From assembly GCA_964441745.1 (NCBI GenBank), contig CAYTYR010000003.1, forward strand, positions 35,348 through 99,347: a stretch of DNA of 64,000 bases, read 5' to 3'. The notes under the pieces are model-generated. The model had not been told where the DNA came from and did not search any database. It saw only the letters and a list, made by a program, of their open reading frames with translations. Both the position numbers and the translations under genes were made by a program. Positions 3,161-58,789 of this stretch are shown here, piece after piece. How positions within the stretch are numbered: position 1 is the first letter of the stretch; every line of letters begins with the position of its first letter. This DNA is from an uncultured Clostridia bacterium (GTDB lineage: Bacteria; CAYTYR01; UBA6262).

Positions 3161-3203
3161 TGGAGTTTTGGAAAAAGCATTTTATTAAGATTTTCACCTT
3201 AAC

Positions 3204-3233
3204 TTAAAACTCAACACTCAAAATTCAAAACTG
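3204..3233. repeat. REP-like intergenic palindromic element, copy 1 (AAAACTCAACAYTCAAAATTCAAAACTG)
   Basis: near-identical to 52666-52695; inverse-related to 55453-55475 and 52563-52578. Confidence 0.5.
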
Positions 3234-3241
3234 CATCTATG

Positions 3242-3628
3242 TTAGCCAATCAGTTTCTTAATTTGTTCCAGCAGGTCTTTGGATTCAAATGGTTTCTTGA
3301 TACAACTGGCCGCCCCCAGCTCCAGCGCCCGGTCACCCAGTTCCATCACGTGGCGGCTGGAAGCGGTAAAGAGAATGATCGGGATGTCTTTCAAAGCCGG
3401 GTCATTTTTAACCGCCTTGCACACCTGATAACCGTCTAGTTTTGGCATTTTCACATCCAGGAGGATCAGATCCGGATGCTCACTCCTGGTTTTAATTAAA
3501 GCCTCTTCCCCATCTCCGGCCAATATTACATTATACCCCAGGCTGATAATCCGCAGTCTGGTTAATTCGGCAATATCTTTTTCATCATCAACCAATAATA
3601 TCGTCTTGGCTTTTTTTTCTTCTATCAT
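3242..3628 (-). CDS. response regulator, stand-alone receiver (CheY-like) domain
   Basis: 128 aa; LLVDDE acidic pocket, phospho-acceptor D in LILLDVKMP, conserved T and K (FTAS, KKPF). Confidence 0.85.
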   Translation of the reverse strand: MIEEKKAKTILLVDDEKDIAELTRLRIISLGYNVILAGDGEEALIKTRSEHPDLILLDVKMPKLDGYQVCKAVKNDPALKDIPIILFTASSRHVMELGDRALELGAASCIKKPFESKDLLEQIKKLIG

Positions 3629-3639
3629 TTATTATCTCC

Positions 3640-6177: not shown

Positions 6178-6192
6178 ATTTTATGATCTCAT

Positions 6193-6612
6193 TTATGCCG
6201 GGGTACTCTTATCCGGATTACTTTTGCCGTCATTCATATGTACGCGTCCATACAAAAAAGTGCTGATCGCTGTTGTTTTAAGCGGTTCCAGATTTAAAAA
6301 CTGCACCCCAGTGTTGAAAAAACCTTCTTTTTCACTGGGGACAACCCAGACCACCCGGACTTCAGAAGTGATCCTGGTCCGGTGCAGGCCGGGCAGGCTG
6401 AAAATAAAAATTGCTTTGCTGGCCATTTTCACCCGTTTGGGCAGCAGCACCATCATGCCCCGCTCTGAAAGATTAACTGCCTTGGTCAGTGTGCTATAGG
6501 CGCTGCCATCTTCCAGTGAAGCATTGATCACCTGGACTCCTTCTTCAAATTTTATACGCGTGCTTTGCCGGCGTTCCGGTTGTTTGAAATCGATCATGCT
6601 CTTCCCCTCCAT
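6193..6612 (-). CDS. PilZ domain protein
   Basis: 139 aa; RRQSTR followed by NLSERG (RxxxR and D/NxSxxG pattern). Confidence 0.55.
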   Translation of the reverse strand: MEGKSMIDFKQPERRQSTRIKFEEGVQVINASLEDGSAYSTLTKAVNLSERGMMVLLPKRVKMASKAIFIFSLPGLHRTRITSEVRVVWVVPSEKEGFFNTGVQFLNLEPLKTTAISTFLYGRVHMNDGKSNPDKSTPA

Positions 6613-6728
6613 ATTTTTACAAATACAGTTTGCTAGTTACCAGTTGCCAGCCAATACGAAAAACAGTTATGAGGTGTAAGTTTTGGAAGTAAGTTTGGTC
6701 TGAGGTCTATGGGTGTTAGGCTTTAAAC

Positions 6729-6792
6729 CACTAACTTTAGACTTACTTCCATACCTGCTTCTACAACTTTCACCCGATTACTATCGCTCGCT
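6729..6792. repeat. interspersed intergenic repeat of about 64 bp, copy A
   Basis: CCACTAACTTTAGACTTACTTCCATACCTGCTTCTACAACTTTCAC... closely matches 13324-13387 (by eye about 50 of 64 identical); also pairs with GGAAGTAAGT at 6686-6695 to form a hairpin. Confidence 0.55.
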
Positions 6793-6824
6793 AATTTTGC
6801 TGCTTTCCGGTTTTACTGGCTAAC

Positions 6825-8690
6825 TTATTTCACTGGTATACTAAAAGTAAATTTGGTACCTTTTCCCGTATCGCTATCAATAGCGATCGTACCGCCATGC
6901 ATTTCCACTAATTCTTTACAAATGAATAATCCTAAACCGCTGCCACCCCGGCCGGCGCTGAATTGCTGGAACCGGCCAAAGACTTTGCCTAAATTCTCCT
7001 TGGCTATACCTACACCGGTATCCTGGATAGTCACATAAATCTTGTTCTCCTCCGGCTGACTGTAGGTAGCCAAGGTAATCTGCCCTTCATCCGGGGTAAA
7101 TTTAATAGCATTACTGATGAGATTCATAATGATCTGGATGAATTTGTCATGGTCTACTTGCGTCTGGGGAATATTCCCAGGGATGGCTTTTAATTCCAGC
7201 TTTTTATTTTTAGCCCAGAGCTGGCTGGAATCAACAACTTTGAGCATTAATTCGTTAAGATCAGCCGGGGCTAACTTCAATTCCATCTTCCCGGATTCGA
7301 TCTTAGAAATGTCCAGCAAATCATTGATCAGTCTTTCCAGCCGGCTAATGCCTTCGCAAGCGTCTTTGAGAAAATCATCCTGATCGTGATTGAGCTCTCC
7401 GGCAATCTTATCCTTGACCATCAACACAGCTCCTTTGATCAAGGTTAAAGGAGAACGTAATTCATGCGAAACATGAGCTACGAATTTATCTTTCAACTGG
7501 TCTATTTCTTTTTGCTTGGTCACATCACTCAATACCGACACCGTACCAACGGTCATACCGCTGGTGTCTTCAATGATAGCGCTGGAGGCGCGCAGGATTT
7601 TCCTGGTATTTTCCTGCCCGTGCACCACTATTTCCTCTACTTTGTCTCCCTGGTCACCGGTACTGATCTCTTTACTGAACGAGGCTATTTGGTGTTCACT
7701 AATATTCTCGGAGATATGCTTACCGGCCACCTTGTCTTTGGGCTTACCCAGCAATTTCTCAGCAGCTTCATTAATAAAGAGCACCTTCCCCTCTTTGTCC
7801 ACTACGACTAGTCCATCGGATATACTACGCAGGATTCGCTCGGTTTTTTCCTTTTCCCGGACCAGTTTCTTTTTATCTTGGACTAACTCATTAACCGCTT
7901 CATGTACTTTTTGCTGCATCGTCTCGTCAAATTGCTTGGCTTTGGCTACCAGTTCTTTATATTCATCATAAGCGATCCTTTTCATCCGCCCGGCTTTTTT
8001 GACCACTGGTTCCATAGCACCGCCAAGTCCAGGTCCTAATCCCGGACCGAGACCAGGACCTAATCCAGGGCTTAACCCAGATCCAAAACCTGTTCCTGTC
8101 CCTATACCAGTTCCACTTTCCGAACCTGTACCGCTCCATGCGTCTATTCCAGCGCCGATGATAGCAGGCCTGTTCCGCCTCTTTGGTTTATCGCCAGCCG
8201 GGGTAGTAGTGACCCTCTCACCTTTTTTCACTTGGACAAAAGTACTTTGATTAACAATAATATGGGAGATATTCTTGTTTTTAAGTAATTGGTTTAGGCC
8301 GCCGTCCTTTACTGTTTTTTGCGGATCGCTCATGAACACTACAAATTCCTGCAATTCTGATTCAGGAACATTAGCCTCAATGGTCAAGCTTTCTACCATC
8401 AGGTGCTTCAAGGTCCCTTCCAGCAAGGCTGCGACTGGACCAGACTGTTCGGTCAGGTTGATATTTTCAATGATAATTTTCCCTTCGACGAAACCAATAG
8501 TAATTTCTTTGCGGCTGGTAAACAATTCTTGCAGTATGCCTTGCAGTTGCTTGAAGGAATCTTTGACAAAAGGATGATCAATAAAATACAGGCTGGTTTT
8601 GCGGATAGTAGAACCTAAAACCTTAGCGAGAGAGAGAAACCTGGCCAGGTCTTGCTCGCTGACTTGCGGCGTTTTATTTTCTTCAGCCAT
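6825..8690 (-). CDS. cytoplasmic sensor histidine kinase with PAS domain and Gly/Pro-rich linker
   Basis: 621 aa; H-box AHVSHELRSPLTLI, HATPase_c G-boxes (DTGVGI, GSGLGLFICK); PGLG repeats in linker; no clear TM segment. Confidence 0.85.
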   Translation of the reverse strand: MAEENKTPQVSEQDLARFLSLAKVLGSTIRKTSLYFIDHPFVKDSFKQLQGILQELFTSRKEITIGFVEGKIIIENINLTEQSGPVAALLEGTLKHLMVESLTIEANVPESELQEFVVFMSDPQKTVKDGGLNQLLKNKNISHIIVNQSTFVQVKKGERVTTTPAGDKPKRRNRPAIIGAGIDAWSGTGSESGTGIGTGTGFGSGLSPGLGPGLGPGLGPGLGGAMEPVVKKAGRMKRIAYDEYKELVAKAKQFDETMQQKVHEAVNELVQDKKKLVREKEKTERILRSISDGLVVVDKEGKVLFINEAAEKLLGKPKDKVAGKHISENISEHQIASFSKEISTGDQGDKVEEIVVHGQENTRKILRASSAIIEDTSGMTVGTVSVLSDVTKQKEIDQLKDKFVAHVSHELRSPLTLIKGAVLMVKDKIAGELNHDQDDFLKDACEGISRLERLINDLLDISKIESGKMELKLAPADLNELMLKVVDSSQLWAKNKKLELKAIPGNIPQTQVDHDKFIQIIMNLISNAIKFTPDEGQITLATYSQPEENKIYVTIQDTGVGIAKENLGKVFGRFQQFSAGRGGSGLGLFICKELVEMHGGTIAIDSDTGKGTKFTFSIPVK

Positions 8691-13323: not shown

Positions 13324-13387
13324 ACCACAAACTTTAGACCTACTTCCATACCTACCTCTACAACCTTCACCTATTACTATTGCTTCT
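13324..13387. repeat. interspersed intergenic repeat of about 64 bp, copy B
   Basis: CCACAAACTTTAGACCTACTTCCATACCTACCTCTACAACCTTCAC... matches 6729-6792; both copies sit just 3' of the stop of a minus-strand gene. Confidence 0.55.
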
Positions 13388-17884: not shown

Positions 17885-20535
17885 CTACAATAAATCTTCC
17901 ACTTTAGTCACCACTTTATACTCAACATCCTTAAATTCCTTAAAATGGGCTTCCCCGCACTTGATCTTCATTCTCTCTTCCGGATATAATTCATTCATTT
18001 CCCGGGTTGATTTCGTCTCCGCCACGAAATACAGCTTCTTCTCCCCTTTAAAGATCAAGGCCCAATCGGGGTTATAACTGCCCAAGGGCGTCTTTATCTT
18101 GAACCAGGCAGGGAGTTTTATGTAGAACTCAACATTATCGTTAGTCTCGCAATCACTGGCGAACCGTTTTTCCGGTTCGCTCATTGAATCTATAGAAATA
18201 TAATTAGCTATAGTTTTATCCTGCTTTGATACTTGATAGAGATTCTTTCTATATGCCTCCACCTCATTGTCTTCGAATAATCTCATCTCATATTCAATAC
18301 CATTGATCTTTTCATATTTTATCCCATCCACAATCATTTCGGCTAAGACATTCTTTATCTCCGCTGTCGCCATATCCATGAACATTTGAGGATTTCTCAA
18401 GATATCAACCAGCCGGCCAGAGCCTTTCAATATCCGCAAGATCGTTGATCGGGTTAATTCGGTTCTCGATTGTATATATCCCAGCACATCCGGGACATCA
18501 AACAAAGGATTTTCAACCTGAGTTATTCCCACACCCTTCTGCACTCCGGTTAATCCTTCTCTGACGACCTGCATTCCCGTTTTAACATACTTAATGATCG
18601 GCTTGCGCACCGCAGGCATATTCTTTATCTCTTTGACCGACGCTTCTATAAGCTTTTCAGTATCGAAATCAATATTATAAGTTGTTTTATGTTTTATTTT
18701 GTCCCATAGCTCCTTAAACTTCTCATCAAACTGGTAATTTTTTCTTAACCGCACTTTCACCCTTTCGTTCTTATTTCTTATCCTCTCCTTGAATTCGACT
18801 CCGCAATCCTCTTCCATTTCTTTCTGTAACTCTGCAGCGAATTCCTCGTAACTTTCATTGGCAATAACCGTCAACCTGTTAGTGTTCTTATCCTGGATCC
18901 TGTCGCCTTGCTGATCCACGCAAAGCCGCAATCCCCTGCCAATTTCCTGCCTCTTTTTCATCTCGGATCTCGTCTCGTTCAGAGTGCATATCTGGAAGAC
19001 ATTGGGGCTATCCCAGCCTTCTCTTAAAGCAGAATGACTGAATATAAATCTTAGAGGATTATTAATATCGAGAAGTCGTTCTTTATCCTTCATTATCAAC
19101 CTGTATGTATCATCATCTGCCAGGGTTTCCCTGGATTCAGAAGAATCTTTAAAGATCCCTTTTTTGTCCTGCGCGAAATAGCCGTTATGAACGACTTCAG
19201 ATTGAAAAGGGATAACTCCCTGATATTCTTTTTTCCCCGCTATTTCCTTGAATATTTCTTCAAACCAGAGGGCAAATTTTCCTTTCGCAGGGTTCCCCGC
19301 CTCATCATAACTGCGGTAGTTGGCTACCCTGTCTATAAAGATAAGCGAAAGGACTTTTATTCCTTTTTCTTTATATTTTTTCTCTTTCTGGAAGTGTTCT
19401 TCCACAGTCTTCCTGATCTGGACCTTCATAACTTCATCCAGCAGGCCGCCCCTCTGCTCTCCAACCGCCAGTATCTCTCCATTGGAGAGCTCAACCTTGC
19501 CTTCCCCCACGTCTATGGCATTAATAATATATCCTTCCCGGTAAAGCTCTCTTTTATTTGATTTTTCATACAAGTCATCTCCAACCTCAACATTCACTGT
19601 TTTCCTGATTATTCCATTCTCGCCAAGGGTATCCAAGCTTATTTTTGCCAGAGTCTTTGTTTTCTTGGCCTTAATATCTTCAACCTTCAGAAAAGCCTGA
19701 TTACTGCTATTCTCGGCAAAAATTGAATCAACTTCTATCTGTTTGACTAATCCCAGATCATAAGCTTTGACAGGATTAAGGCTGTAAACAAGGTTATACA
19801 GATTTGCGTGAGTAGCAGAATAGCGGAGAGTGCAGGCAGGATTCAGATTATCTATGGCCTTTTTCCTTATTTCCGTTTCCATGTTCTGAGGTTCATCAAC
19901 AATGACTATGGGATTCGTCGCCTGTATGAATTCTATCGGTTTCTTCCCGGTTAGTTTATCATTAAACTTATTAATAACATTCACGTCCTTGGCAAATGAA
20001 TCAATATTGATGACCAATATCTGAATGTTATTGTTTAGAGCGAAATTCCTTAAAAGGGATATTTTCCCCGGATCATACACGTTGAATGTCGCCGGTTGTT
20101 TCTCATACAAAGACTGGAAATGGTCATGGGTTATCTCAAGGTTCTTAATAACTCCTTCTCTTATGGCGATGCTGGGGACTACGATTATAAACTTTTTGAA
20201 TCCATAGCGTTTATTAAGCTCATATATGGTCCGCAAATATACATAAGTCTTTCCTGTACCTGTCTCCATTTCCACTGAGAAATTAAGACCTTGCAGGTAT
20301 TCCGCTTCTTTGAGCCCATTTTTCCGCTGAATTGCCTGAAGATTTGCTAATATTTGCGCTTCTTCCAAAACTATCCCATTTCCAACACCGTTTTCAGACA
20401 GCATATAGCCGCTATTGGGAGACAAAGAAAATTCATAATCGCTCTTATTTAAAGGCTGCCCCTCGAACAGGTCAACTATGGAGTTAATAGCGTCTATCTG
20501 ATACTGCTGGTTTGGATCAAAATGGAGTTTCATTA
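17885..20535 (-). CDS. res: Type III restriction enzyme, Res subunit (helicase-nuclease)
   Basis: Walker A METGTGKTYVY, motif II VIVDEPQNM, C-terminal nuclease region; real start is ATG at 20533-20535 (MKLHFDPNQQYQ) with AAGGA SD, not the upstream in-frame start at 20668. Confidence 0.9.
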
Positions 20536-20543
20536 TTATCCTT

Positions 20544-21288: not shown

Positions 21289-21336
21289 TCAAAGCTCTAT
21301 CTGATACTGCTGGTTTGGGTCAAAATGGAGTTTCAT
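21289..21336 (-). repeat. R2: duplicated copy of res 5' end forming a 15-codon mini-ORF (MKLHFDPNQQYQIEL)
   Basis: ATGAAACTCCATTTTGACCCAAACCAGCAGTATCAGATAG matches the real res start (20497-20535) with one mismatch by eye, then diverges into the Fic RBS. Confidence 0.7.
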
Positions 21337-21369
21337 TATTTATTTCTCCAACTATTTCCAATATTCTTA

Positions 21370-21404: not shown

Positions 21405-21550
21405 AGGCAATAATGCTAATAATTTTGGATCGGGGTGTCCCCGGTCGGTATTAATGAGCGGTAAGTCCGTTGTGAATTGTTCCAAGTGTTCCCTTCCATA
21501 GGTTGGCTATAGCTTGGACGCAACAAGTTCACAGGGCGCGCTCATTTTTT
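21405..21550 (+). ncRNA. candidate structured small RNA of about 145 nt, antisense to the Type III RM operon
   Basis: downstream of the promoter; local hairpin GATCGGGG-TGT-CCCCGGTC (21427-21446); long-range pairing AATGAGCG (21452-21459) with CGCTCATT (21538-21545) followed by T-run 21545-21550; only coding potential is a 15-aa ORF without SD. Confidence 0.35.
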
Positions 21551-43829: not shown

Positions 43830-43866
43830 TTTTGTAATCGTTTTTAGAAATCTGTGTAATCATTTT
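43830..43866. promoter_or_regulatory. GTAATC direct-repeat element upstream of porin gene (candidate Pho box)
   Basis: TTTTGTAATCGTTTTTAGAAATCTGTGTAATCATTTT; two TGTAATC units 22 bp apart; reverse complement of the pstS-upstream motif. Confidence 0.4.
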
Positions 43867-44954: not shown

Positions 44955-44989
44955 GATTACACAGATTAGAAAGAAAGATTACACAGATT
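44955..44989 (+). promoter_or_regulatory. tandem GATTACACAGATT boxes upstream of pstS (candidate Pho box/operator)
   Basis: two identical 13-mers at 44955-44967 and 44977-44989, 22 bp centre to centre, ending 16 nt before the pstS ATG. Confidence 0.45.
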
Positions 44990-46796: not shown

Positions 46797-47668
46797 TGCT
46801 GAATATAAGTAATCGTAAATGGCGTGAGTTCAAACAACAAATAGGTTTTATGGCCGTGCGCCTGGCCGCACTAATAATCTTCATTATCCTGGGTATTTTG
46901 CTCTACTTCATATTCAGTCGCGGCATTACCGTGATCAGTTGGGACTTCCTGACCAAGATGCCGGAGAAAGGTATGACGGCCGGAGGCATATTCCCGGCCA
47001 TATTGGGTACTTTTTATCTTACTATGGGAGCCATACTGTTCGCCCTGCCACTGGGTATATTGGCGGCTATTTATATGACTGAATATGCCACTCAGGGGAA
47101 GATCATCCGTATTATCCGTATTGGTATCAGCAACCTGGCCAGCGTGCCTTCAATTGTTTTCGGGTTATTTGGTTTGGCGCTTTTCGTTAATTACCTGAAG
47201 TTCGGCGTTTCCATTCTTTCCGGAAGCTTGACCCTGGGGATCATGATCCTGCCGGTAATAATCAGGGCCAGTGAGGAAGCTTTATTGTTAGTGCCTCAAG
47301 GTTTCCGTGAAGCATCCCTGGCTTTGGGCGCGACCAAGTGGCAGACTATCTATAAGATCGTATTGCCTAATGCCAGCGGCGGGATCATTACCGGGGCTAT
47401 ACTCGGTGTCGGCCGGGTAGCCGGGGAAACAGCGCCTATTCTATTCACTGCGGCAACTTTTTATATCCGGAAATTGCCTGATTCCATTTTCAGCGAGGTC
47501 ATGGCCCTGCCCTATCATATCTATGCTTTAATGACCGAAGGCAGTCATCCTAAAGAACAAAAAGCCATCGCTTATGGCGCTTCCTTAGTGCTTATTATTA
47601 TGGTCCTGGGGATCAACCTGTTAGCGATTTTTATCCGTAACCATTACAGGAGGAAAAAGAAATGGTAA
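46796..47668 (+). CDS. pstA: phosphate ABC transporter permease PstA
   Basis: 290 aa, multi-TM; GTG start overlapping pstC stop; [13 protein letters not shown] signature. Confidence 0.9.
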
Positions 47669-48438
47669 GTAGTATCGGGAACACCAATCTGCGCATGGAA
47701 GTAAAAAACCTTAATTTTTATTATGGCCGGAACCTGGCTTTAAAAAATATCAATATGGGAATAGAAAATAACAAGGTGACCGCAGTGATCGGTCCGTCTG
47801 GCTGCGGCAAATCCACTTTTATCAGGATCTTGAACCGGATGAATGATATAATCATTGGCAGCCGGGTGGAAGGCGAGATCCTGCTGGACAGGGAAAATAT
47901 CTATGATCCCCGCATGGATGTGGTGGAGATACGCCGCAAGATCGGCATGGTGTTCCAGAAATCAAATCCTTTTCCCAAATCCATTTTTGATAATATTGCT
48001 TATGGCCTGCGGATCAATGGCCTGAGTAATAAAACAGAAATAACCGATCGGGTGGAAATGAGCCTGAAAAATTCCGCTCTCTGGGAAGAAGTACAGGACC
48101 GCTTGGATGATAATGCTTTTGAACTGTCAGGCGGGCAGCAGCAAAGATTATGCATTGCCCGGGCTTTGGCCATCGAACCGGAAGTGATCTTGTTCGATGA
48201 GCCTTGTTCCGCTTTGGACCCTATCTCCACTGCCAAGATCGAGGAATTGATCAACCAGCTGAAAGAAAAATATACTATTGCTATTGTCACCCATAATATG
48301 CAGCAAGCGGCGCGTATTTCTGATTATACCGGGTTCTTTCTGCTGGGGGAGTTAATCGAATTCGATAAAACGGAAAAAATATTCACCAATCCGGCTCGGA
48401 AGCAGACTGAGGATTATATCACCGGCAGATTTGGATAA
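47662..48438 (+). CDS. pstB: phosphate ABC transporter ATP-binding protein PstB
   Basis: Walker [13 protein letters not shown] signature LSGGQQQRL, Walker B ILFDEP; AGGAGG SD. Confidence 0.9.
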
Positions 48439-48478
48439 ATCCCTTGAAACAGAGCAAGGTTTTTGCTATACTAAGTCC

Positions 48479-49270
48479 ATGCAAAAACCAATGCTCGTCT
48501 TTTTTTTATGTCTGCTGGTCATTACTAGTTGTGCCCGTAACGAACAACAGAAAGGTATCACTGTCGCGGGATCGACCAGTGTCCAGCCTTTTGCTGACAA
48601 ATGGGCAGAAGTATATATGGAGGAACACCCTGACCGCGTGGTTAATGTCCAGGGAGGTGGATCCAGCGCCGGGATCCAGGCAGCAAAGAGCGGAGCGGCG
48701 AATATCGGTACTTCTTCCCGTGAACTAAAGACAGATGAAAAAGACTTAAATGAAATTGTTGTAGCCCGTGATGGATTGGCAGTAATAGTACATCCTGCCA
48801 ATCAAGTTAATAACCTGTCCATGGTGCAGTTGAAAGACATCTTTGCCGGAACCATCCTGAATTGGAAAGAAGTGGGTGGTATTGACCGGCCGATCACAGT
48901 GGTTACACGCGAGGAAGGCTCTGGAACCCGTGGCGCTTTCCAGGATATGGTCATGGGGAAAACCCGTATTTGCAAATGGGCTATTGTTCAGGATTCTAAT
49001 GGAGCGGTCAGGGAAATCATCTCTGGCGACCCCCATGCCATGGGGTATATATCTTTAGGCTTGGTGAATGATAAAGTAAAAGCTTTAAAATTAGATAACA
49101 TTACTGCTACTGACGAAAATATAATTACTAAGAGATATAAACTGGTTCGTCCTTTCTTGTTTGTCACCAAAGGACAACCAACCGGACAGGTCAAGGATTT
49201 TATAACCTTTGCGCTTTCCCAGGAAGGCCAGAGCCTCGTAGAAAAGGAAGGTCTTATTCCAGCCAAATGA
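48479..49270 (+). CDS. pstS: second phosphate-binding protein PstS (lipoprotein form)
   Basis: ATG at 48479 gives lipoprotein signal MQKPMLVFFLCLLVITSC; GSTSV and TREEGSGT motifs; ORF-track start 48431 is a TTG. Confidence 0.85.
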   Translation: MQKPMLVFFLCLLVITSCARNEQQKGITVAGSTSVQPFADKWAEVYMEEHPDRVVNVQGGGSSAGIQAAKSGAANIGTSSRELKTDEKDLNEIVVARDGLAVIVHPANQVNNLSMVQLKDIFAGTILNWKEVGGIDRPITVVTREEGSGTRGAFQDMVMGKTRICKWAIVQDSNGAVREIISGDPHAMGYISLGLVNDKVKALKLDNITATDENIITKRYKLVRPFLFVTKGQPTGQVKDFITFALSQEGQSLVEKEGLIPAK

Positions 49271-50130
49271 ACAGGATTGAAAGAAACGAAAAACTCATAG
49301 AGCTGGCTTTACTCGTCTTAGCTTTCTCCGCTGTTTCCATATTGGTGGTGATCACTCTCTTTATTTTCAAAGAGGGCACTCCCATTATGTTCAAATATGG
49401 GTTTAAAAATTTTCTTTTAGGCACAGATTGGTATCCTACGGAACATAGTTTTGGCCTTTTATCGATGATCATTGGATCGATCATGGTGACTATCGGCTCG
49501 CTCTTTATCGGGATACCTTTTGGCCTGGCTTGCGCGATCTTCCTGACTGAATTTTCCACTAAGCGTCTCCGCCAGATCATTAAACCTATTATCGAGCTAT
49601 TAGCTGGAATACCTTCAGTGGTGTACGGTTTTATGGGAGTCATCATCCTGGTGCCTTTTATTCGCGAAAAATTCGGCGGACCAGGGTTCTCGGTATTGGC
49701 TGCATCCATTATTCTGGGTATCATGATCTTACCCACTATCATTAGTATTTCCATAGATTCTTTGCAGGCGGTACCGCGGAGCTATCGCGAAGGCTCGATC
49801 GCCTTGGGCGCCACTAAATGGCAAACCACCAAAATGGTTACCCTGCCGGCAGCCAAATCTGGTATTATCGCCAGTATCATTCTGGGTATGGGCCGGGCTA
49901 TCGGGGAAACCATGGCCACCATTATGATCGCCGGTAACGCGGTCATGATCCCTCACTCTATTTTAGATCCAGTCCGGACTTTAACCTCTAATATAGCCTT
50001 GGAAATGGGCTATGCCAGCGGTGAACATCGCCAGGCTTTGTTTGCTACTGGTGTTATATTATTCATTATTATCATGGTCTTAAATACAATTGCCAATGCC
50101 ACTTCCGCCAAGGGAAAGGCAGCTAAGTAA
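49267..50130 (+). CDS. pstC: phosphate ABC transporter permease PstC, second copy
   Basis: 287 aa multi-TM paralogue of 45912-46796; ATGA overlap with pstS2 stop. Confidence 0.9.
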   Translation: MNRIERNEKLIELALLVLAFSAVSILVVITLFIFKEGTPIMFKYGFKNFLLGTDWYPTEHSFGLLSMIIGSIMVTIGSLFIGIPFGLACAIFLTEFSTKRLRQIIKPIIELLAGIPSVVYGFMGVIILVPFIREKFGGPGFSVLAASIILGIMILPTIISISIDSLQAVPRSYREGSIALGATKWQTTKMVTLPAAKSGIIASIILGMGRAIGETMATIMIAGNAVMIPHSILDPVRTLTSNIALEMGYASGEHRQALFATGVILFIIIMVLNTIANATSAKGKAAK

Positions 50131-50966
50131 TGTATATCAATCCTAAACTTGAACAAAAAATGGTACAATCAATCCTCTGGCTTTTTACCCTTATTACTAT
50201 ATTCATACTTTTTTTCATTATTTTTTATATTCTGCGTAAAGGCCTGCCGGTATTAAACTATACTTTTTTAACAACCAATCCCATGGATATGGGGAAAAGC
50301 GGCGGTATCTATTCTACGATCATCGGCACCATAGCCCTGACTATCGGGGCACTTATTGTAGCCACTCCCCTAGGAGTGGGAACAGCCATTTATCTTAATG
50401 AATATACCAGGGAAAGCAAGATGACCAAGGTTATCCGCTTTGGTTCTGAGTGTCTGGCAGGTATTCCCTCAATTATCTTTGGGTTGTTCGGCTTTATTTT
50501 ATTTGTAACTAAATTAAAAATGGGTTGGTCCATATTGAGCGGCAGCCTGACCATGGCTTTCATGCTCCTGCCGACTATCATCAGGACCAGTGAAGAAGCG
50601 CTAAAGTCTGTACCATATAATTACCGGGAAGTAAGTTATTCCCTGGGTGGCACCAAATGGCAAACAGTCACTAAAGTGGTTTTCCCTTCCGCTCTACCCG
50701 GAATATTGACCGGTATCATCTTGAGTATTGGCCGAAGCGTTGGTGAAACAGCGGCTACTATTTTTACGGCTGGCAGCGCTTTGCGTATGCCAACTTCTAT
50801 CTTTTCATCCTCACGGACTATGGCGGTACATTTTTATATCCTGGCCCGTGAAGGGATCTCCATGCCCAACGCTTATGGCACAGCTGCTGTATTGATCATT
50901 ACTATTTTATTTATTAACATTATTTCGTACAGGCTGATGCATCAATTCATGAAGAAGTATTCATAA
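50130..50966 (+). CDS. pstA: phosphate ABC transporter permease PstA, second copy
   Basis: 278 aa multi-TM paralogue of 46796-47668. Confidence 0.9.
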   Translation: MYINPKLEQKMVQSILWLFTLITIFILFFIIFYILRKGLPVLNYTFLTTNPMDMGKSGGIYSTIIGTIALTIGALIVATPLGVGTAIYLNEYTRESKMTKVIRFGSECLAGIPSIIFGLFGFILFVTKLKMGWSILSGSLTMAFMLLPTIIRTSEEALKSVPYNYREVSYSLGGTKWQTVTKVVFPSALPGILTGIILSIGRSVGETAATIFTAGSALRMPTSIFSSSRTMAVHFYILAREGISMPNAYGTAAVLIITILFINIISYRLMHQFMKKYS

Positions 50967-50992
50967 GGATTTAGCACCAGACAGGACACCTA

Positions 50993-51751
50993 ATGGCAAA
51001 CATTACTATCAAAGCAAATAATTTCAGCCACTATTTCGGCGCTAACCAAACGCTGAAAAATATAAATCTGGATGTTTACCAAAATGAGATATTGGGCATC
51101 ATCGGCCCTGCCGGCAGCGGCAAATCCACTTTCCTGCGGGCGCTTAACCGGCTCAATGACCTGACCCCGAAATCACGGATAGAAGGATCACTATATATTG
51201 ACGGCCAGGATATCTATACGCCGGAAACGAGCGTGATCGAACTGCGGCGTAAATTAGGCATGGTCTTTGCCACACCGGTACCCCTGCCCCGCTCAATTTA
51301 CGAAAACGTGGCTTTCGGGCCTAGAATGGCCGGATTAGCTGGTAAAAACCATTTAAAAGAACTAGTTACTGATTGTTTGATTAAATCAACCTTATATGAA
51401 GAAGTCAAAGACCGGCTTGATTCCAGCGGCCAAAAACTTTCCGGTGGGCAGCAGCAGCGGCTGTGTATCGCCCGCATCCTGGCCTTGAAGCCTGAATTCA
51501 TCCTACTGGATGAACCGTGTTCGGGATTGGACCCGATTTCAACCATGAAGATCGAGGAATCACTGCGCAATCTAAAAAAGGATTATACTATTATCCTGGT
51601 AACCAATAACACCAAGCAGGCCGCCCGGGTAGCCGACCGGACGGCTTTTTTCCTGAGCGGAGAGCTGATCGAAGTCGGACCGACAGACAAGATCTTCACC
51701 ACTCCGGCCGACCAGCGGACCAATGATTATATATCGGGAAGGTTCGGATAG
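50993..51751 (+). CDS. pstB: phosphate ABC transporter ATP-binding protein PstB, second copy
   Basis: Walker A GPAGSGKST, signature LSGGQQQRL, Walker B ILLDEP. Confidence 0.9.
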   Translation: MANITIKANNFSHYFGANQTLKNINLDVYQNEILGIIGPAGSGKSTFLRALNRLNDLTPKSRIEGSLYIDGQDIYTPETSVIELRRKLGMVFATPVPLPRSIYENVAFGPRMAGLAGKNHLKELVTDCLIKSTLYEEVKDRLDSSGQKLSGGQQQRLCIARILALKPEFILLDEPCSGLDPISTMKIEESLRNLKKDYTIILVTNNTKQAARVADRTAFFLSGELIEVGPTDKIFTTPADQRTNDYISGRFG

Positions 51752-51757
51752 AAAGAC

Positions 51758-51791
51758 GATTACATAGATTAAAATGCAGATTACACAGATT
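51758..51791 (+). promoter_or_regulatory. tandem GATTACA(C/T)AGATT boxes upstream of third pstB
   Basis: GATTACATAGATT at 51758-51770 and GATTACACAGATT at 51779-51791, 21 bp apart. Confidence 0.45.
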
Positions 51792-51805
51792 TTTTAAAGG
51801 TGTCT

Positions 51806-52558
51806 ATGAGTATAATAGAAGTAAATAATTTATCATTATTTTACGGTAATTTTCAGGCGTTGAAAAATATTAACCTGAATATTGAAAAACAGAAGATCAC
51901 GGCTTTAATTGGGCCTTCCGGCTGCGGCAAATCCACCTTCCTGAGATGCCTCAATCGGATGAATGACCTGATTGAAGACGTACGCATAACCGGATCAGTG
52001 AAAATAGCGGATAATGACATTTATCATAACGGATACGATTTATTAGCCTTACGTAAGAATGTCGGCATGGTCTTCCAAAGACCAAACCCTTTTCCCTTAA
52101 GCATTTATGACAATGTCGTTTATGGTTTGAGGGTACATGGTATTCTGGACAATAAAATAATGGAAGAAAAATTGCAATGGAGCTTGGAATCAGTGCACCT
52201 CTGGGATGAGGTAAAAGACAAACTTGATACTAATGCTCTCGCTCTTTCCGGTGAACAGCAGCAGCGGCTCTGTATTGCCCGGCTGGCGGTAGTGGAACCG
52301 AAAGTCCTGCTGATGGATGAACCTTGTTCGGCATTAGACCCTATATCCACCGCAAAAATTGAAGATTTGATGTATGAACTTAAAAAGCAATATACGATAA
52401 TTATCGTAACGCACAATATGCAGCAGGCCGCCAGGGTATCTGAATATACCGGATACTTTTTATTAGGGGACTTGGTAGAGTTTGGTGAAACCACCCAGAT
52501 CTTTACCAGTCCGAAAGATAGCAGGACAGAAGATTATCTGACGGGAAGATTTGGCTAA
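51806..52558 (+). CDS. pstB: phosphate ABC transporter ATP-binding protein PstB, third copy
   Basis: Walker [10 protein letters not shown]; signature reads LSGEQQQRL (Gly to Glu in the second Gly); ATG at 51806, ORF-track start 51800 is GTG. Confidence 0.85.
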
Positions 52559-52562
52559 TAGT

Positions 52563-52695
52563 AAAACAATTTTGAGTTATAAGTTTTAAGTTTTGAGTTT
52601 AGGTGAATTTCTTTACCATAATTAATAATTCTCCGCCTTTAAGCTTGGCGGATCCGCCTCTGGCGGAAAAACTCAACATTCAAAATTCAAAACTG
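52563..52695. repeat. REP/MITE-like palindromic element between pstB3 and phoU
   Basis: left arm AAAACAATTTTGAGTT..., two internal CCGCC/GGCGG hairpins (52631-52667), right arm AAAACTCAACATTCAAAATTCAAAACTG; arms are inverse-related and match 3204-3233 and 55453-55475. Confidence 0.5.
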
Positions 52696-52717
52696 TATTA
52701 AATTTTAGGAGGAAACA

Positions 52718-53389
52718 ATGCAGCGACATTTTGACGAAGAATTAGCAGACCTGAGCAAAGAAGTTTTGCGTATGGGCAGTTTAACTGAAGAATCAATTTA
52801 TAAATCAATTGAGGCTCTTAAAGCTCTCAGTGCCGAACAAGCTAAACAGGTGATCATAGAAGATAAAAAAATAGATGAAATGGAATTAGCGATAGACGAA
52901 AAATGCCTCGATTTGTTGGCTTTAAATCAGCCCATGGCTATTGACCTGCGCTTCATTACCATGACGATGAAGATCTGCACGGACCTGGAACGCATCGCTG
53001 ATCTGGCTGTGGATATTGCCCAGCGGTGCCTGGAAATAGCAGGCAAACCCCAGCTTAAACCACTGATTGATATTCCCAAATTAGCTACCCTGGCTCAAAG
53101 CATGGTCAAGGAAGCGATCGATGCGTTTGTACATAAGGATGTAGAGCTGGCTAAAAAAGTCATTTTACGCGATCCGGAAGCTGATAACCTGCGTAATTTG
53201 GTCCAGTCTGAGTTGATCAAGGATTATATTGCCAAAGACCCAACGACTGCGCCAAGGGCTGTACCCCTACTGCTGGTAGCGCGCCATTTAGAAAGAATCT
53301 GCGACCATACTACGAATATCGCTGAAGATGTCATCTATATGGTTGAGGGAAAAATAGTGAAACACCATTTGGAAGCATTAGGATCATAA
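52718..53389 (+). CDS. phoU: phosphate signalling complex protein PhoU
   Basis: 223 aa; two-repeat PhoU architecture with DLERIADLAVDIA and LERICDHTTNIAED segments; GGAGG SD. Confidence 0.85.
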   Translation: MQRHFDEELADLSKEVLRMGSLTEESIYKSIEALKALSAEQAKQVIIEDKKIDEMELAIDEKCLDLLALNQPMAIDLRFITMTMKICTDLERIADLAVDIAQRCLEIAGKPQLKPLIDIPKLATLAQSMVKEAIDAFVHKDVELAKKVILRDPEADNLRNLVQSELIKDYIAKDPTTAPRAVPLLLVARHLERICDHTTNIAEDVIYMVEGKIVKHHLEALGS

Positions 53390-53447
53390 CACTTATTATT
53401 TATTAACCTATTTACAGCAAGCCTGAATTCTGCTACACTACTAAAGT

Positions 53448-53544
53448 GATTACACCGATTTCTAAAAAAGATTACCCCGATTAAAAAAACAAGTTCTAAT
53501 CATCTTGCTCTATCAGTGTAATCTCATTTCTAATCTGTGTAATC
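53448..53544. promoter_or_regulatory. cluster of four GATTAC/GTAATC boxes in palindromic arrangement
   Basis: GATTACACCGATT (53448-53460), GATTACCCCGATT (53470-53482), then TGTAATC at 53517-53523 and 53538-53544; upstream of gene 53566. Confidence 0.4.
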
Positions 53545-53565
53545 GTATTACAAGGAGGCAGGAAC

Positions 53566-53985
53566 GTGAAAAATGTAGCCAAATGGCTGTTGGCAGGGAT
53601 AGTGGTAGCTGCTGTTTCCTATTTTATCAATGCCCTCTTTACCATTCTCTTTAAGAATTTCTATGCCCAAACACCTGCGTTGATCAAACCCTTAAGTAAT
53701 GTCTGGATGGTCCAAACCCTGCTGGGTAACTTTTCCAGCGGGCTTATCTACGCCTTAATGTTTACAGTCTTGCAGCATGGTATTCCTGGCAAGGGGATCA
53801 CTAAAGGATTTTTTCTGGGGTTATTGCTGTGGGCTATTACTGTTCCGCCGCTCTTGATCACCTATAATACCAATATCGATATCAAACTTATTCTCTCGTG
53901 GCTGTTAACCGGGCTTATTGCTACCCCGCTCGCTTGCATCGCGGTTGTTATTATCTATGAAAAGGTCACTGATCGGGAGAAGTAA
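53566..53985 (+). CDS. hypothetical integral membrane protein
   Basis: 139 aa, about four hydrophobic helices; GTG start with AGGAGG SD 7 nt upstream. Confidence 0.5.
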   Translation: MKNVAKWLLAGIVVAAVSYFINALFTILFKNFYAQTPALIKPLSNVWMVQTLLGNFSSGLIYALMFTVLQHGIPGKGITKGFFLGLLLWAITVPPLLITYNTNIDIKLILSWLLTGLIATPLACIAVVIIYEKVTDREK

Positions 53986-53993
53986 CCACCTAA

Positions 53994-54917
53994 TTAATCT
54001 TGTTTCGATAAAGCTATCATTCTATCAATAGCCAGTTTCGCTTTACTGCGGACTGGCTCTTCTACTTTCACTGGGTAGATCATATCCCGCAAGGACCAAT
54101 AGATATTTTCCAAGGTGACCAATTTCATATTGGAGCAGGCAGCTTGCGTATTGGCAGGATAAAACTGCTTATCCGGATTTTCCTTTTTCAGTCTGTGCAG
54201 CATACCAACTTCTGTACCGACAATAAATTCTTTTTCTTCTTTCTCCCTGGCATAAGCGCTCATACTGCCTGTTGACAGTACGGCATTAGCTAACATGGTT
54301 ACATCGCTCCGGCATTCCGGATGGGCCATGACCAGCGCCTCCGGGTATTTCCTCTTCATTTTAAGAATATCATCGCTGGTAATGCGAACATGAGTTGGGC
54401 AATAACCTTCCCAAATTATAAATTTCTTACCCGGCACTTTCAGCTGTGTATAGCTGCCTAAATATTTATCAGGGATAAAGATGATCTCATCAGCAGCAGT
54501 TAAGGAATTGACTACTTTCAGGGCATTAGAACTGGTACAGCAAATGTCACTTTCGGCTTTTACCGCGGCAGTTGAGTTAACATAGCAAACAACTTTAGCC
54601 TGGGGATGCTGTCTTTTCAGCTCCCGCACATTTTCAGCATTGATCATACTGGCCATGGGACAACCGGCTTCATGATCCGGTATTAACACAGTTTTTTGGG
54701 GAGAAATAATAGCCGCAGTTTCAGCCATAAAAAACACTCCGCAAAAAACAATTATCTTGGCCTGTGTTTCGCTGGCCTTCAGGCTCAGTTCCAGGGAGTC
54801 ACCGACAAAATCAGCTACTTCCTGCACTTCCGGCAGTTGATAGTTATGTGCCAGTATCACCGCATTTTTTTTCTTAGCCATATCCTTTATTTCATTTAAC
54901 AATCTGGATATATCCAT
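53994..54917 (-). CDS. nadA: quinolinate synthase NadA
   Basis: 307 aa; NadA blocks ILAHNYQ, cysteine ligands in CPMA / CYVNS / CPT context. Confidence 0.85.
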   Translation of the reverse strand: MDISRLLNEIKDMAKKKNAVILAHNYQLPEVQEVADFVGDSLELSLKASETQAKIIVFCGVFFMAETAAIISPQKTVLIPDHEAGCPMASMINAENVRELKRQHPQAKVVCYVNSTAAVKAESDICCTSSNALKVVNSLTAADEIIFIPDKYLGSYTQLKVPGKKFIIWEGYCPTHVRITSDDILKMKRKYPEALVMAHPECRSDVTMLANAVLSTGSMSAYAREKEEKEFIVGTEVGMLHRLKKENPDKQFYPANTQAACSNMKLVTLENIYWSLRDMIYPVKVEEPVRSKAKLAIDRMIALSKQD

Positions 54918-55208
54918 TATTCCCTCAAAGTTGAAAAATCCTTGTTAGCCCCGTTTTACGGGACTAACAAGGTGAACCTGAAGCCCGCAAGAGATACTAT
55001 CTCCCGCGAGCTATCTTCGTTTCCCGCCGCAGCAATGAGCTACTGGACGCAGAAAATACTTTCTGGAAACTCTTGCTCTCATGATAATCACCACCCTCCC
55101 CTAAAACAAATTCGAAATTCGAATAGCGAAATTCTAAACTCTATTGTTTGCGCATTTTATTTATTTGAACTTGTTTAGTATTTCGGATTTAGAGTTTCGT
55201 ATTTGTTC

Positions 55209-55436
55209 TTAATTTACTGCTTCCACTTTTTTCACTTCCGGGACATCTTCCTTCAGGATCCGCTCAATGCCATTCTTTAAGGTCATCGTAGCCATGGGAC
55301 AGCCCAGGCAGGCGCCAAGTAATTTCACTTTTACCACTCCTGTCTTTTCATCGATATCTACCAACTCTACACTGCCGCCATCCGCTCCCAGCATTTTGGC
55401 GACCTTGGCCAAGCTTTTTAACACTTTTTCCTTCAT
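55209..55436 (-). CDS. NifU-like (Nfu) Fe-S cluster carrier domain protein
   Basis: 75 aa; GACLGCP CxxC motif typical of Nfu/NifU C-terminal domain. Confidence 0.75.
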   Translation of the reverse strand: MKEKVLKSLAKVAKMLGADGGSVELVDIDEKTGVVKVKLLGACLGCPMATMTLKNGIERILKEDVPEVKKVEAVN

Positions 55437-55452: not shown

Positions 55453-55475
55453 AAAACAATTTTGAGTTTTGAATT
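55453..55475. repeat. REP-like element copy (AAAACAATTTTGAGTTTTGAATT)
   Basis: reverse complement closely resembles the 3204-3233 and 52666-52695 motif. Confidence 0.45.
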
Positions 55476-55530
55476 AAGGTTAAAACTTAATTATTAAATG
55501 CTTCTATCAAAACTCGTGACTCGCGACTTG

Positions 55531-56703
55531 CTACTTTTTTTTGTATAATGGTGACATTTCCCTGAGTTTTTTAACAATTCTTGGCAATGCTTCTAATAAA
55601 TATTCAACATCTTCATCAGTATTAAGACGGCCCAGGCTGAAACGAAGACTGCTATGCGCCACTTCCGGGCTTACTCCCAGCGCTTTGATCACATGGGAAG
55701 GCTCTAGTGAGCTGCTGGAACAAGCTGAACCAGTTGAAGCAGCGATCCCCTCCAGGTCCAGGTTAATCAACATTGATTCACCTTCTATATATTTTATAGT
55801 CACATTAACATTGTTTGGCAGCCGTTTAGTAGGATGACCGTTTAATTCTGATTCATCGATCTTTTCCAAAATTCCTTTGATCAGCTTGTCACGCAAGATA
55901 GTCACGTGCTGGTGGCGTTCCTGTTTTTCCTGTATCGCCATTTCTACTGCTTTGCCAAATCCTACTATACCGGGGACATTTTCAGTAGACGCGCGACGCC
56001 TTCTTTCCTGTTCCCCCCCATGCAGAAACGGCAGGATGCGCACGCCTTTCCTGATATACAGTAAGCCCACTCCTTTAGGACCGTATAATTTATGCGCGCT
56101 GGCGCTGAGCAGATCAATATTAAGTTTCTCTACATCCAGGTCCAGGCTGCCAAAGGTCTGTACAGCATCGGTATGAAAATAAATCCCTTTCTCCCTGGCT
56201 ACTTTCCCGATGCCGGCGATCGGTTCAATCGTGCCGACCTCGTTATTAGCGTGCATTACGGAGATTAAGATAGTCTGCGGCGTAATTGCTTTAATAATTG
56301 CTTCCAGATCCACCAGACCATATTTATCAACCGGTATATAGGTAACCTTGGCGCCGCGGTGTTTTTCCAGGAACTTACAAGTTTCCAAGACTGCATGATG
56401 TTCGATAGTCGTAGTAATAATATGATTGCCCTTCTTAGCATTAGCCTCAAAGACACCGATTAAGGCGAAATTATCTGCCTCTGTGCCACCACTGGTGAAA
56501 ACAATCTCCTCACTCTTGGCATTAATATATTTAGCGATCAAATCCCGAGCCTGGGTGACAGCAGCCTGCGCTTCCTGGCCAAAAGTATGAAGACTGGACG
56601 GATTACCGTAAACCGTGTCAAAATAGGGCTGTATCGCCTTAATTACTTCCGGATGCACCGGAGTAGTCGCGGCATAATCAAAATAACGTCGTTTAACATC
56701 CAT
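55531..56703 (-). CDS. iscS: cysteine desulfurase (NifS/IscS family)
   Basis: 390 aa; PLP-lysine context SASAHKLYGPKGVG and active-site Cys loop ASTGSACSS. Confidence 0.85.
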   Translation of the reverse strand: MDVKRRYFDYAATTPVHPEVIKAIQPYFDTVYGNPSSLHTFGQEAQAAVTQARDLIAKYINAKSEEIVFTSGGTEADNFALIGVFEANAKKGNHIITTTIEHHAVLETCKFLEKHRGAKVTYIPVDKYGLVDLEAIIKAITPQTILISVMHANNEVGTIEPIAGIGKVAREKGIYFHTDAVQTFGSLDLDVEKLNIDLLSASAHKLYGPKGVGLLYIRKGVRILPFLHGGEQERRRRASTENVPGIVGFGKAVEMAIQEKQERHQHVTILRDKLIKGILEKIDESELNGHPTKRLPNNVNVTIKYIEGESMLINLDLEGIAASTGSACSSSSLEPSHVIKALGVSPEVAHSSLRFSLGRLNTDEDVEYLLEALPRIVKKLREMSPLYKKK

Positions 56704-57805: not shown

Positions 57806-58726
57806 TCACCACACACTTAAGTAACGTTCTCCAGTGTCACATAAAATAGTAACCACTGTTTTATCTTTTCCCAATTGTTCAGCTACCTGCAACGCCGCAA
57901 AAACATTAGCGCCAGAGGAAATGCCGGCCAATAGTCCTTCTTCCCGGGCCAGCCGTGAAGCAGTAGCAAAAGCATCTTCATCCTGTACTTTGATTATTTC
58001 ATCAATAATTTTCCGGTTCAGGACTCCCGGTACAAACCCGGCGCCAATACCTTGTATTTTATGCGGACCCGGCTGCCCGCCTGACAAAACAGGACTATTA
58101 GCCGGTTCTACTGCTATTACCCTGATTTTTCTGGCAATATCTTTCTTTAAAGCTTCACCTACGCCAGTTAGCGTCCCTCCGGTACCGACAGCAGCCACAA
58201 AAGCATCAATATTACCTTTAGTTTGGGCTATGATCTCCTGAGCAGTAGTCAAACGGTGAATCTCCGGATTGGCCTGATTATTAAACTGCATCGGCATATA
58301 ATAATCAGAATGGGCTTCTGCTATTTCTTTGGCTTTTCTTACTGCCCCGCCCATACCTTCTGCTCCTGGAGTTAATAAAAACTCGGCGCCATACGCAGTC
58401 AGGAGTTTACGACGCTCTATACTCATAGTTTCCGGCATAGCCAGTATTAACTTATATCCCTTGACCGCGGCGACCAAAGCCAGACCGATACCCGTATTAC
58501 CGCTAGTAGGTTCGATAATAGTCCCGCCTGGTTTCAGCCAGCCTTTTTTCTCTGCTTCCTCGATCATCGCCAGGCAGATCCGGTCCTTAACACTGCCTCC
58601 GGGATTGAAATATTCCACTTTAACTAGCACTTTAGCATCGTCTGACCCGGTAAGCTTGTTAAGTTGTACTAATGGAGTATCCCCGATCAGCCCCAGGACA
58701 TTTTTTGCGATTTCCGGTTTACCCAT
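57806..58726 (-). CDS. cysK: cysteine synthase A (O-acetylserine sulfhydrylase)
   Basis: 306 aa; PLP lysine in [19 protein letters not shown], Gly-rich GTGGT loop. Confidence 0.9.
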
Positions 58727-58789
58727 AATAACTCCTTCGGAGTAAATTCTAAATCCGAATATCTAAATCCTAATCTGTGAAATCGTTTT

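Follow-up and report, generated by a model that had tools for sequence, protein, structure and literature searches.

Three copies, one complete and two broken, of a small palindromic repeat with heptanucleotide arms in a 64-kb stretch of an uncultured Clostridia genome

Three intergenic sites in the window, by which we mean the whole stretch of 64,000 nucleotides analyzed here, hold copies of a small, non-coding palindromic repeat, of which one is complete and two are broken. The arms of the repeat are tandem degenerate heptanucleotides, as seen from a TRF period of 7 and an excess of periodicity at lag 7. With moderate confidence, we read the three sites as copies of a non-autonomous, rapidly turning-over palindromic repeat with arms of four heptamers each. 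Our best reading of its nature is that it is MITE/REPIN-like in behavior and heptanucleotide simple-sequence-repeat-like in build.

The 26-mer AACTCAACAYTCAAAATTCAAAACTG is present at 3208-3233 and at 52670-52695, and shuffled sequences gave an expectation of 0 matches even with up to three mismatches. The 16-mer AAAACAATTTTGAGTT is present at 52563-52578 and 55453-55468, with 0.11 matches expected. A profile assembled from six copies in the genomes of relatives recovered the three sites (E values of 6e-12 to 1e-4) and no other significant match in the window, so that the list of sites in a preliminary description of this DNA is complete for the TTTTGAG-type family, at three copies per 64 kb. 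That description had proposed a dispersed inverted-repeat module, and the shuffles and the profile search both bear this out. It had also called the module always intergenic, consistent with the position of all three sites between co-directional genes (Table 1), and had placed two GC hairpins between the arms of the middle copy, where they are indeed found. Only site 2, however, has both arms; sites 1 and 3 are incomplete.

Table 1. Coordinates of the repeat copies, their parts and the neighboring genes in the window
Feature	Positions	Strand	Description
GATase-like gene	2402-3160	-	Flanks site 1
Site 1	3162-3233		Truncated copy; centre TTAAGattttcaCCTTAA and right arm only, left arm missing
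Site 1, right arm	3203-3230		Four heptamers, CTTAAAA CTCAACA CTCAAAA TTCAAAA
Site 1, right terminus	3231-3233		CTG
Response-regulator gene	3242-3628	-	Flanks site 1; stop codon 8 nt from the site
pstB-like ATPase gene	47662-48438
pstB-like ATPase gene	50993-51751
pstB-like ATPase gene	51800-52558	+	Flanks site 2; stop codon 52556-52558
Site 2	52563-52699		Complete composite copy, the only complete one of the three
Site 2, left terminus	52563-52569		AAAACAA
Site 2, left arm	52570-52597		Four heptamers, TTTTGAG TTATAAG TTTTAAG TTTTGAG
Site 2, small central hairpin	52602-52617		GGTGAA/TTTACC
Site 2, nested GC hairpin	52633-52651		CCGCC..GGCGG
Site 2, nested GC hairpin	52653-52667		TCCGCC..GGCGGA
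Site 2, right arm	52672-52692		Three heptamers, CTCAACA TTCAAAA TTCAAAA
Site 2, right terminus	52693-52695		CTG
phoU Shine-Dalgarno	52707-52712
phoU	52718-53389	+	Flanks site 2; ATG at 52718
Type B palindrome	55103-55207		AAAACAA ATTCGAA ATTCGAA TAGCGAA ATTCTAA ... GTTTAGT ATTTCGG ATTTAGA GTTTCGT ATTTGTT
nifU-like gene	55209-55436	-	Flanks site 3; start at 55436
Site 3	55453-55530		Hybrid copy; centre of the element contains TTATTAAATGCTTC
Site 3, left part	55453-55473		AAAACAA and two left-arm units, TTTTGAG TTTTGAA
Site 3, hairpin	55474-55490		TTAAG..CTTAA
Site 3, right arm	55507-55530		Other heptamer type, AAACTCG TGACTCG CGACTTG
nifS	55531-56703	-	Flanks site 3; stop codon 55531-55533
PALP-domain gene	57806-58726	-	Type B single arm directly upstream of its ribosome-binding site
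Type B single arm	58743-58777		TAAATTC TAAATCC GAATATC TAAATCC TAATCTG

On either strand, the general layout of the element is 5'-(A)AACAR-[TKWTRAR]x4 - centre - [YTYAWMA]x4-YTG(T)TT-3'. The entering-side consensus TKWTRAR covers the units TTTTGAG, TTATAAG, TTTTAAG, TTTTGAA, and TGTTGAG, the leaving-side consensus YTYAWMA is the complement of that arm, and the outer ends are (A)AACAR on one side and YTG on the other. The basic element measures ~80 nt, which nested inserts extend to ~135 nt. By inspection of the sequence, the entering arm contains stop codons in all three frames, while the leaving arm contains neither a stop nor a start codon. The window also holds heptamer arrays of a second type (type B, GAAATTC/GTTTCGT). 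Only 1-2 nt separate the end of the type B palindrome from the stop codon of the nifU-like gene, and the syntenic locus L076 has an orthologous copy of this palindrome.

The sites are extremely improbable as an intrinsic terminator, a function that the preliminary description had considered, or as a chance similarity of low-complexity sequence. The GC hairpins of site 2 and the A/T-rich composition could suggest as much, but no U-tract follows any hairpin of the elements, the GC hairpins included on either strand, and a terminator scan returned nothing within the elements; these two results exclude a terminator of the usual build (a GC-rich stem followed by a U-tract). Promoter-like matches were at chance level. 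Nor is the similarity one of low-complexity A/T words only, since the arms are ordered heptanucleotide arrays that gave no matches in shuffles, support a specific profile search, and have homologous copies in relatives.

When each copy was folded as RNA, site 2 reached -38.6 kcal/mol (z = -3.46 against shuffles), whereas sites 1 and 3 folded no better than shuffles. The type B palindrome reached -21.3 kcal/mol (z = -2.0). Rfam searches of the window, of site 2, and of a full copy, at gathering and permissive thresholds, returned for the elements only generic long-hairpin microRNA models far below threshold. REP elements are said to act as intercistronic hairpins in some operons. With a comparable function here, the ~38-bp imperfect stem of site 2 would block 3'-exonucleases or serve as an RNase III site and thereby uncouple the levels of pstB and phoU. 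The folding of site 2 and type B agrees with such a role, as does the position of elements inside operons, just upstream of a free Shine-Dalgarno sequence, and most heptamer repeats of Xanthomonas are transcribed (PMC4692102). The pairing itself, however, is not conserved. RNAalifold of the arms gave one compensatory pair in 29 with a positive covariation term, and arm-to-arm comparison at variable positions gave 0/33 and 0/23 compensated pairs. Across 17 elements between co-directional genes, folding energy showed no bias between sense and antisense RNA, and both orientations relative to transcription occur. Together with the poor folding of sites 1 and 3 and the lack of conservation of the element at the pstB3-phoU spacer in nine relatives, these results make a functional intercistronic hairpin quite improbable. 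An effect of the element on pstB/phoU expression, which the preliminary description had raised, would be at most modulatory, and nothing indicates a conserved role in pst-phoU control.

The behavior of the repeat emerges from comparison with syntenic relatives. One locus of bacterium STB_132 (L022) is syntenic with positions 233-7771 of the window at ~77% identity, and loci of Elusimicrobia bacterium UBA6262 (L032/L077) are syntenic with 46848-54839 at ~78-80%. A search for PhoU homologues gave access to additional syntenic loci (L076, L078-L084); the homologues at 73% identity carry the label Candidatus Omnitrophica. Over nine syntenic relatives, we compared the intergenic spacers of pstB2-pstB3-phoU-x-nadA-nifU-nifS. 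Spacers are compact (3-50 nt) in the more distant relatives (L080-L083): the two pstB genes overlap by ATGA or stand 3-11 nt apart, phoU is preceded by 18-50 nt, and 10-17 nt separate nifU from nifS. The same spacers in the window and its closer relatives measure 48-166 nt and are filled by palindromic heptamer arrays. The type of heptamer is genome-specific, and one type recurs in several spacers of the same genome: GTTGATA in L076 and L084; GCGAGTT with a AAGCATTTAAT centre in three spacers of UBA6262 (L077), which has in addition a TTTTGAG composite between pstB2 and pstB3; and CTAGTCG, GCTTATA, and ATATCAA in L079. The window alone among the compared genomes has a TTTTGAG composite before phoU, a position at which the nine relatives have other elements or merely a spacer of 18-50 nt. 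The ancestral ATGA overlap of pstB2 and pstB3 is kept in three relatives and is split by different inserts in five genomes, including the window. As a side observation on this cluster, the window has three pstB-like ATPase genes (Table 1), and its permease genes are duplicated.

Orthologous spacers that are filled in one genome and empty in another differ by replacement of the whole spacer, without a clean insertion. L076 and L079 have common spacer flanks and arms of different heptamer type, which suggests in-place rewriting, by slippage or conversion, instead of separate insertions. At the nifU-nifS boundary, the element of the window is inverted relative to its UBA6262 counterpart, and the right half of site 3 has its homologues in the GCGAGTT-type elements of UBA6262, which run in the opposite direction. 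At the position of site 1, STB_132 (L022) has a full element followed by an extra response-regulator gene that is missing from the window. A ~425-nt indel accounts for the loss of this gene, with the half copy of site 1 at its edge. The window lacks both this second response-regulator gene and the arm next to it, so one boundary of the indel lies in the site 1 element. These presence/absence differences, and the breakpoint inside a copy, make "MITE/REP-like" and "recombination site", both terms of the preliminary description, reasonable descriptions of how the element behaves.

To survey the wider distribution of the arms, we used a degenerate 25-mer of the right arm as query against a collection with one genome per species. 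The search matched 72 stretches from more than ten phyla, among them Bacteroidota, Cyanobacteria, several deltaproteobacterial lineages, Acidobacteriota, Nitrospirota, Elusimicrobia, Bacillota (Anaerobacillus), Chloroflexota, and Planctomycetota; there was one match in viral contigs. An i.i.d. estimate puts the chance expectation at no more than 0.3 matches, a model from which low-complexity repeats depart, and we therefore inspected the parts of the hits that the search itself had not forced. The unit just inside the match is YTCAAAA in ~80% of the 74 distinct hits, the second unit inward keeps only "AA", and the unit after that is random. Array length peaks at four units (46 of 74), with 14 arrays of three units, 12 of five, and two of six. 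About half of the hits have a complementary arm 20-130 nt away. The order of arms runs from UG-rich to CA-rich in 37 palindromes and is reversed in three, all within one tandem array. The inverted-arm elements measure 63-190 nt and contain no ORF. Even single arms keep a polarity relative to genes: CA arms stand before a start codon in 12 cases versus two of opposite polarity, and UG arms follow a stop codon in 27 cases versus five. Elements end ~0-25 nt from stop codons or ribosome-binding sites. A crude caller placed 26 arms inside long ORFs; judging from the few inspected, most of these appear to be over-extended starts.

This pattern brings into consideration a protein-binding platform, in which the four heptamers would bind an oligomeric or cooperative protein at one protomer per 7 nt and the palindrome would present two such sites. 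Candidates would be cold-shock-domain or S1-type proteins on RNA or single-stranded DNA, and ribbon-helix-helix proteins of the plasmid omega-repressor kind on double-stranded heptads. Heptamer-specific binding by cold-shock proteins and the heptads of the omega repressor are precedents for such an arrangement. Conservation of the arm motif while arm-to-arm pairing is uncompensated argues for a platform of this kind, as do the polarity of single arms and the sharp peak at four units across phyla, which recalls the unrelated heptamers of Xanthomonas and Geobacter; the A/T-rich units cannot form G-quadruplexes, and the G-quadruplex account of the four-unit bias does not cover the TTTTGAG family. 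Binding of S1, Csp, or CsrA has also been proposed for TAACTGA repeats (MacGregor 2015, PMC4679880). Against this, close relatives have different heptamer sequences in one and the same spacer, a variation that a single conserved binder leaves unexplained, no candidate protein recurs near the elements in the 72 loci, and the elements are missing from the same spacers of slightly more distant relatives. We consider a binding platform unlikely as the explanation of the sites.

Several features common to copies at different loci bear on how the repeat spreads. An asymmetry between a TGTTGAG arm and a TTATAAG arm is common to copies at different loci in three to four genomes, and the order of the non-identical units within an arm is conserved between such copies. 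A composite with the same two GC hairpins is present at three loci in three genomes (pstB3-phoU in the window, pstB2-pstB3 in UBA6262, and elsewhere in STB_132), and a composite with a further 47-nt insert (CCCCTGCTG...GGGGACAGG) in its left arm is present at two different loci in one metagenome. These shared derived features, the arm asymmetry and the nested inserts, indicate that whole elements have been duplicated to new places. In metagenomes, the GC-hairpin module of site 2 was found in two contigs, both from relatives. A public (Logan) contig, L085, is 100% identical to the window over 10.7 kb and begins at 52647, inside this module; a break at that point would be expected of a module that has several copies in the genome or that disrupts the assembly graph. 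Separately, we note that the nested 47-nt module lies at 6400-6480 of L058, 300-370 of L073, and 1330-1410 of L074, and that a nested 20-nt GC hairpin, GCTCCGACTTACATCGGAGC, lies within an arm at 2870-2895 of L084. Such tiny nested GC-rich modules, akin to the GC hairpins of site 2, may be an independent class of tiny insertions.

Copying of whole elements contrasts with what pure replication slippage predicts, namely heptanucleotide simple repeats that arise and drift in place, with neither dispersal nor function. In the window and the 72 loci (599 kb), there are 182 periodic tracts at lag 7 compared with 1-13 at the other lags from 4 to 12, and 74 of the 182 are of other sequence types, including GGTAACA, GTTCAAG, GGAACCC, AGGAATT, TTTCGGA, and CTACGCT. 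Neighboring heptamer arrays are similar in inverted orientation in 45 cases and in direct orientation in 18. According to the summary in MacGregor (2015, PMC4679880), Mrazek et al. (2007) identified heptanucleotides as the long simple repeats with the strongest over-representation in many bacteria and as the most abundant ones in most repeat-rich bacterial genomes, and suggested polymerase slippage. This excess at lag 7 is what slippage would produce, and the combination of like flanks and different unit sequences in L076 and L079 also fits. However, array length is fixed near four rather than broadly spread, the units are non-identical and keep their order between loci, composites with identical nested inserts recur at unrelated loci, and a fixed inverted partner arm is not predicted by slippage. 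We think it very doubtful that slippage by itself explains the sites. The lag-7 excess extends well beyond the TTTTGAG family, which belongs to a widespread, poorly characterized class of "inverted four-heptamer" intergenic elements of many phyla and sequence types.

The repeat was also compared with established classes of small elements. A REP unit is an imperfect palindrome of 20-40 nt with a GTAG or CGTC tag at one end. The arms described here are direct heptamer arrays that are not self-complementary and lack either tag, so the "REP-like" part of the preliminary description stands for a palindromic, non-coding element whose presence varies among relatives and not for REP proper. Two inverted units forming one long hairpin, as in a REPIN, are seen in the 37 inverted-arm elements and in the fold of site 2. 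As for the term "MITE-like", the inverted terminal arms, the small size, the lack of coding capacity, and the presence/absence polymorphism at orthologous sites in the nine syntenic relatives all agree with it, but the examined loci revealed neither a target-site duplication nor a cognate transposase, as a classical MITE would have. The flanks have no consistent direct repeat and no conserved target, and a TA duplication of the IS630/Tc1-like kind (CAGT...ACTG) was confined to one syntenic block and does not extend to the family at large. Neither a transposase nor another recurrent protein was found beside copies in 535 kb of loci, and all-against-all clustering of 495 ORFs from the 72 loci returned only generic response regulators, kinases, and ABC proteins. 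No recurrent family that could be a RAYT stands beside the copies in these loci, and none was found among the ten window proteins scanned. Where pairs of arms lie 2 kb apart, the ORFs between them encode pilins, toxin-antitoxin systems, a glycosyltransferase, and metabolic enzymes, which are ordinary genes and do not suggest an autonomous element between these arms. As no transposase stands beside the copies, mobility is deduced here from their distribution only.

In its head-to-tail 7-nt units the element also resembles short tandem repeats of the STRR type, but it shows neither free length variation nor near-identical units: four units are the mode, and units differ within an arm. Integron attC sites are imperfect palindromes bounded by RYYYAAC ... 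GTTRRRY boxes and located between mobile cassettes; the termini of the element are (A)AACAR ... YTG(T)TT and its flanking genes are syntenic housekeeping genes, so this class was discarded. CRISPR was discarded on sequence and context. A resemblance of the units to tRNA anticodon loops (Y-U-NNN-R-A) was seen in 24 of 66 other heptamer types compared with 15.5 +/- 3.2 in shuffles, a weak excess.

In the account that we favor, a turning-over palindromic repeat, the element would be copied as a unit to new places, by copy-and-paste or by spread through gene conversion. It would acquire nested small-hairpin inserts, would be quickly replaced or lost, and would mark the breakpoints of indels. Copies would accumulate in the few bases between the stop codon of one gene and the ribosome-binding site of the next, surviving where they are least harmful. 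They are presumably tolerated there owing to the stop codons in three frames of the entering arm, the absence of start and stop codons from the leaving arm, and the lack of a terminator. Transcribed within an operon, the element would form a long imperfect A/U-rich hairpin that may have a modest local effect on the processing or stability of the mRNA; such an effect looks incidental and not like a conserved function.

Some observations sit less easily with a plain mobile element. It is unusual for MITEs or REPs to have near-identical arms in different phyla; the cause could be a constraint in common, such as a binding protein, or convergent evolution of repeats. The fixed length of four units, the conservation of a motif without that of its pairing, and the differing arms of L076 and L079 likewise misfit a plain selfish-element story and keep alive the idea of a common machinery. 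In that case, the "inverted four-heptamer" elements would be one cross-phylum system, with the four-unit arrays as loading sites of a conserved machinery, a possibility that we judge decidedly unlikely. The machinery could be a four-protomer nucleic-acid-binding assembly or a dedicated mobilizing enzyme that writes, copies, or reads arrays at gene boundaries. If real, it would account for the heptanucleotide excess, for the four-unit preference seen in Xanthomonas, in Geobacter, and in the present family, and for the fixed polarity that the arrays keep toward stop and start codons.

To our knowledge, the origin and role of heptanucleotide repeats have been unexplained since their first description in cyanobacteria. 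By the heptanucleotide build of its arms, the TTTTGAG family connects with the 7-nt repeats known to be in excess in bacteria, and a sequence-string search of the literature did not find its unit sequences in any paper. The closest parallel is with the four-unit GGGAATC and GGGGAYT repeats of Xanthomonas and Nostoc, in which the four-unit bias has been tied to G-quadruplex formation (Rehm et al. 2015, PMC4692102). Those repeats too are intergenic and mostly between co-directional genes. Their polarity is also similar, with the G-rich strand sense within 50 bp after a stop codon and antisense within 50 bp upstream of a gene; some form inverted pairs, and length and sequence vary between close relatives. 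In contrast to these G-rich units, the TTTTGAG family has one isolated G per unit and cannot form a G-quadruplex, its arms as a rule make up an inverted pair whose termini are defined, and entire elements, nested inserts included, are found again at other loci. The G-quadruplex explanation of the four-unit preference therefore cannot be general. A four-unit rule in the absence of G-quadruplex potential is the interesting part of the family, which provides a clean non-G-rich case of the four-unit preference and gene polarity reported for G-rich repeats, and it turns "why seven, why four" into a testable question.

Geobacter metallireducens has 49 copies of four GGACCGG units, and five MTYCTGA units drawn as inverted pairs (Aklujkar et al. 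2009, PMC2700814). These elements are likewise multicopy, with four or five tandem heptanucleotides and some inverted pairs, and were proposed as global regulatory sites. They differ in unit sequence, GGACCGG is also found inside genes, and no analysis across phyla or of turnover was reported. The TAACTGA direct repeats lie just upstream of start codons in Beggiatoaceae, Cyanobacteria, and Bacteroidetes (MacGregor 2015, PMC4679880). They and the cyanobacterial STRR heptamers resemble the present family as intergenic heptamer arrays with a patchy distribution across phyla, close upstream of starts in one orientation, and TAACTGA matches an AAACTCA unit at five of seven positions. The TAACTGA arrays, however, are direct sets of 2-6 units, with one inverted case in that genome, and overlap and replace the ribosome-binding site, whereas the elements described here have inverted paired arms, keep a Shine-Dalgarno sequence downstream, and occur directly after stop codons just as often. 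MITEs and REPINs (Bertels and Rainey 2011, PMC3116915) are similarly short, non-coding, dispersed, and intergenic, with two inverted arms that form a long hairpin, and their families are genome-specific and vary in presence between relatives. Unlike them, the present copies have no target-site duplication, cognate IS, or RAYT nearby, and their arms are tandem heptamers that are near-identical across phyla. In genome annotation, evidence should be required before such elements are named terminators or riboswitch-like regulators.

The window contains several further features. Direct repeats of GATTACAcagatt with a period of 21-22 nt are present at 43833-43861, 44955-44983, 51758-51785, 53448-53544, and 8732. 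They directly precede the ribosome-binding sites of genes that belong to the phosphate-transport cluster or neighbor it, occur in either orientation, and are also present in L078 and L083; relative to UBA6262, the window has a 118-nt insert with these repeats after phoU. Possible identities are Pho-box-like operator sites and a further repeat family. Upstream of nadA (53994-54917, minus strand), a block of ~150 nt at 54940-55090 on the minus strand is conserved in L076-L080 and L084. It holds a possible 23-codon ORF (MRARVSRKYFLRPVAHCCGGKRR), ends just before nadA in a strong terminator-like hairpin (54972-54940, 15 pairs and a T-run), and has no Rfam match even at a permissive threshold; we regard it as a candidate leader or riboswitch-like control region for nadA.

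Positions 21451-21548 on the plus strand are a full-length match to the Rfam DUF3800-V RNA (RF02964), at 71.5 bits compared with a gathering score of 37.4. Near it, two 45-nt stretches (20493-20537 and 21296-21340) are 98% identical, with weaker copies at 23140 and 34562, and look like the starts of paralogous genes. Another intergenic repeat, of ~140 nt, is present at 6639-6782, with a partial copy at 13324-13386 (48 nt at 90% identity, 13324-13371). This repeat is 85-86% identical to two regions of STB_132, one non-syntenic (L007, 3696-3837) and one syntenic (L022, 944-1078).
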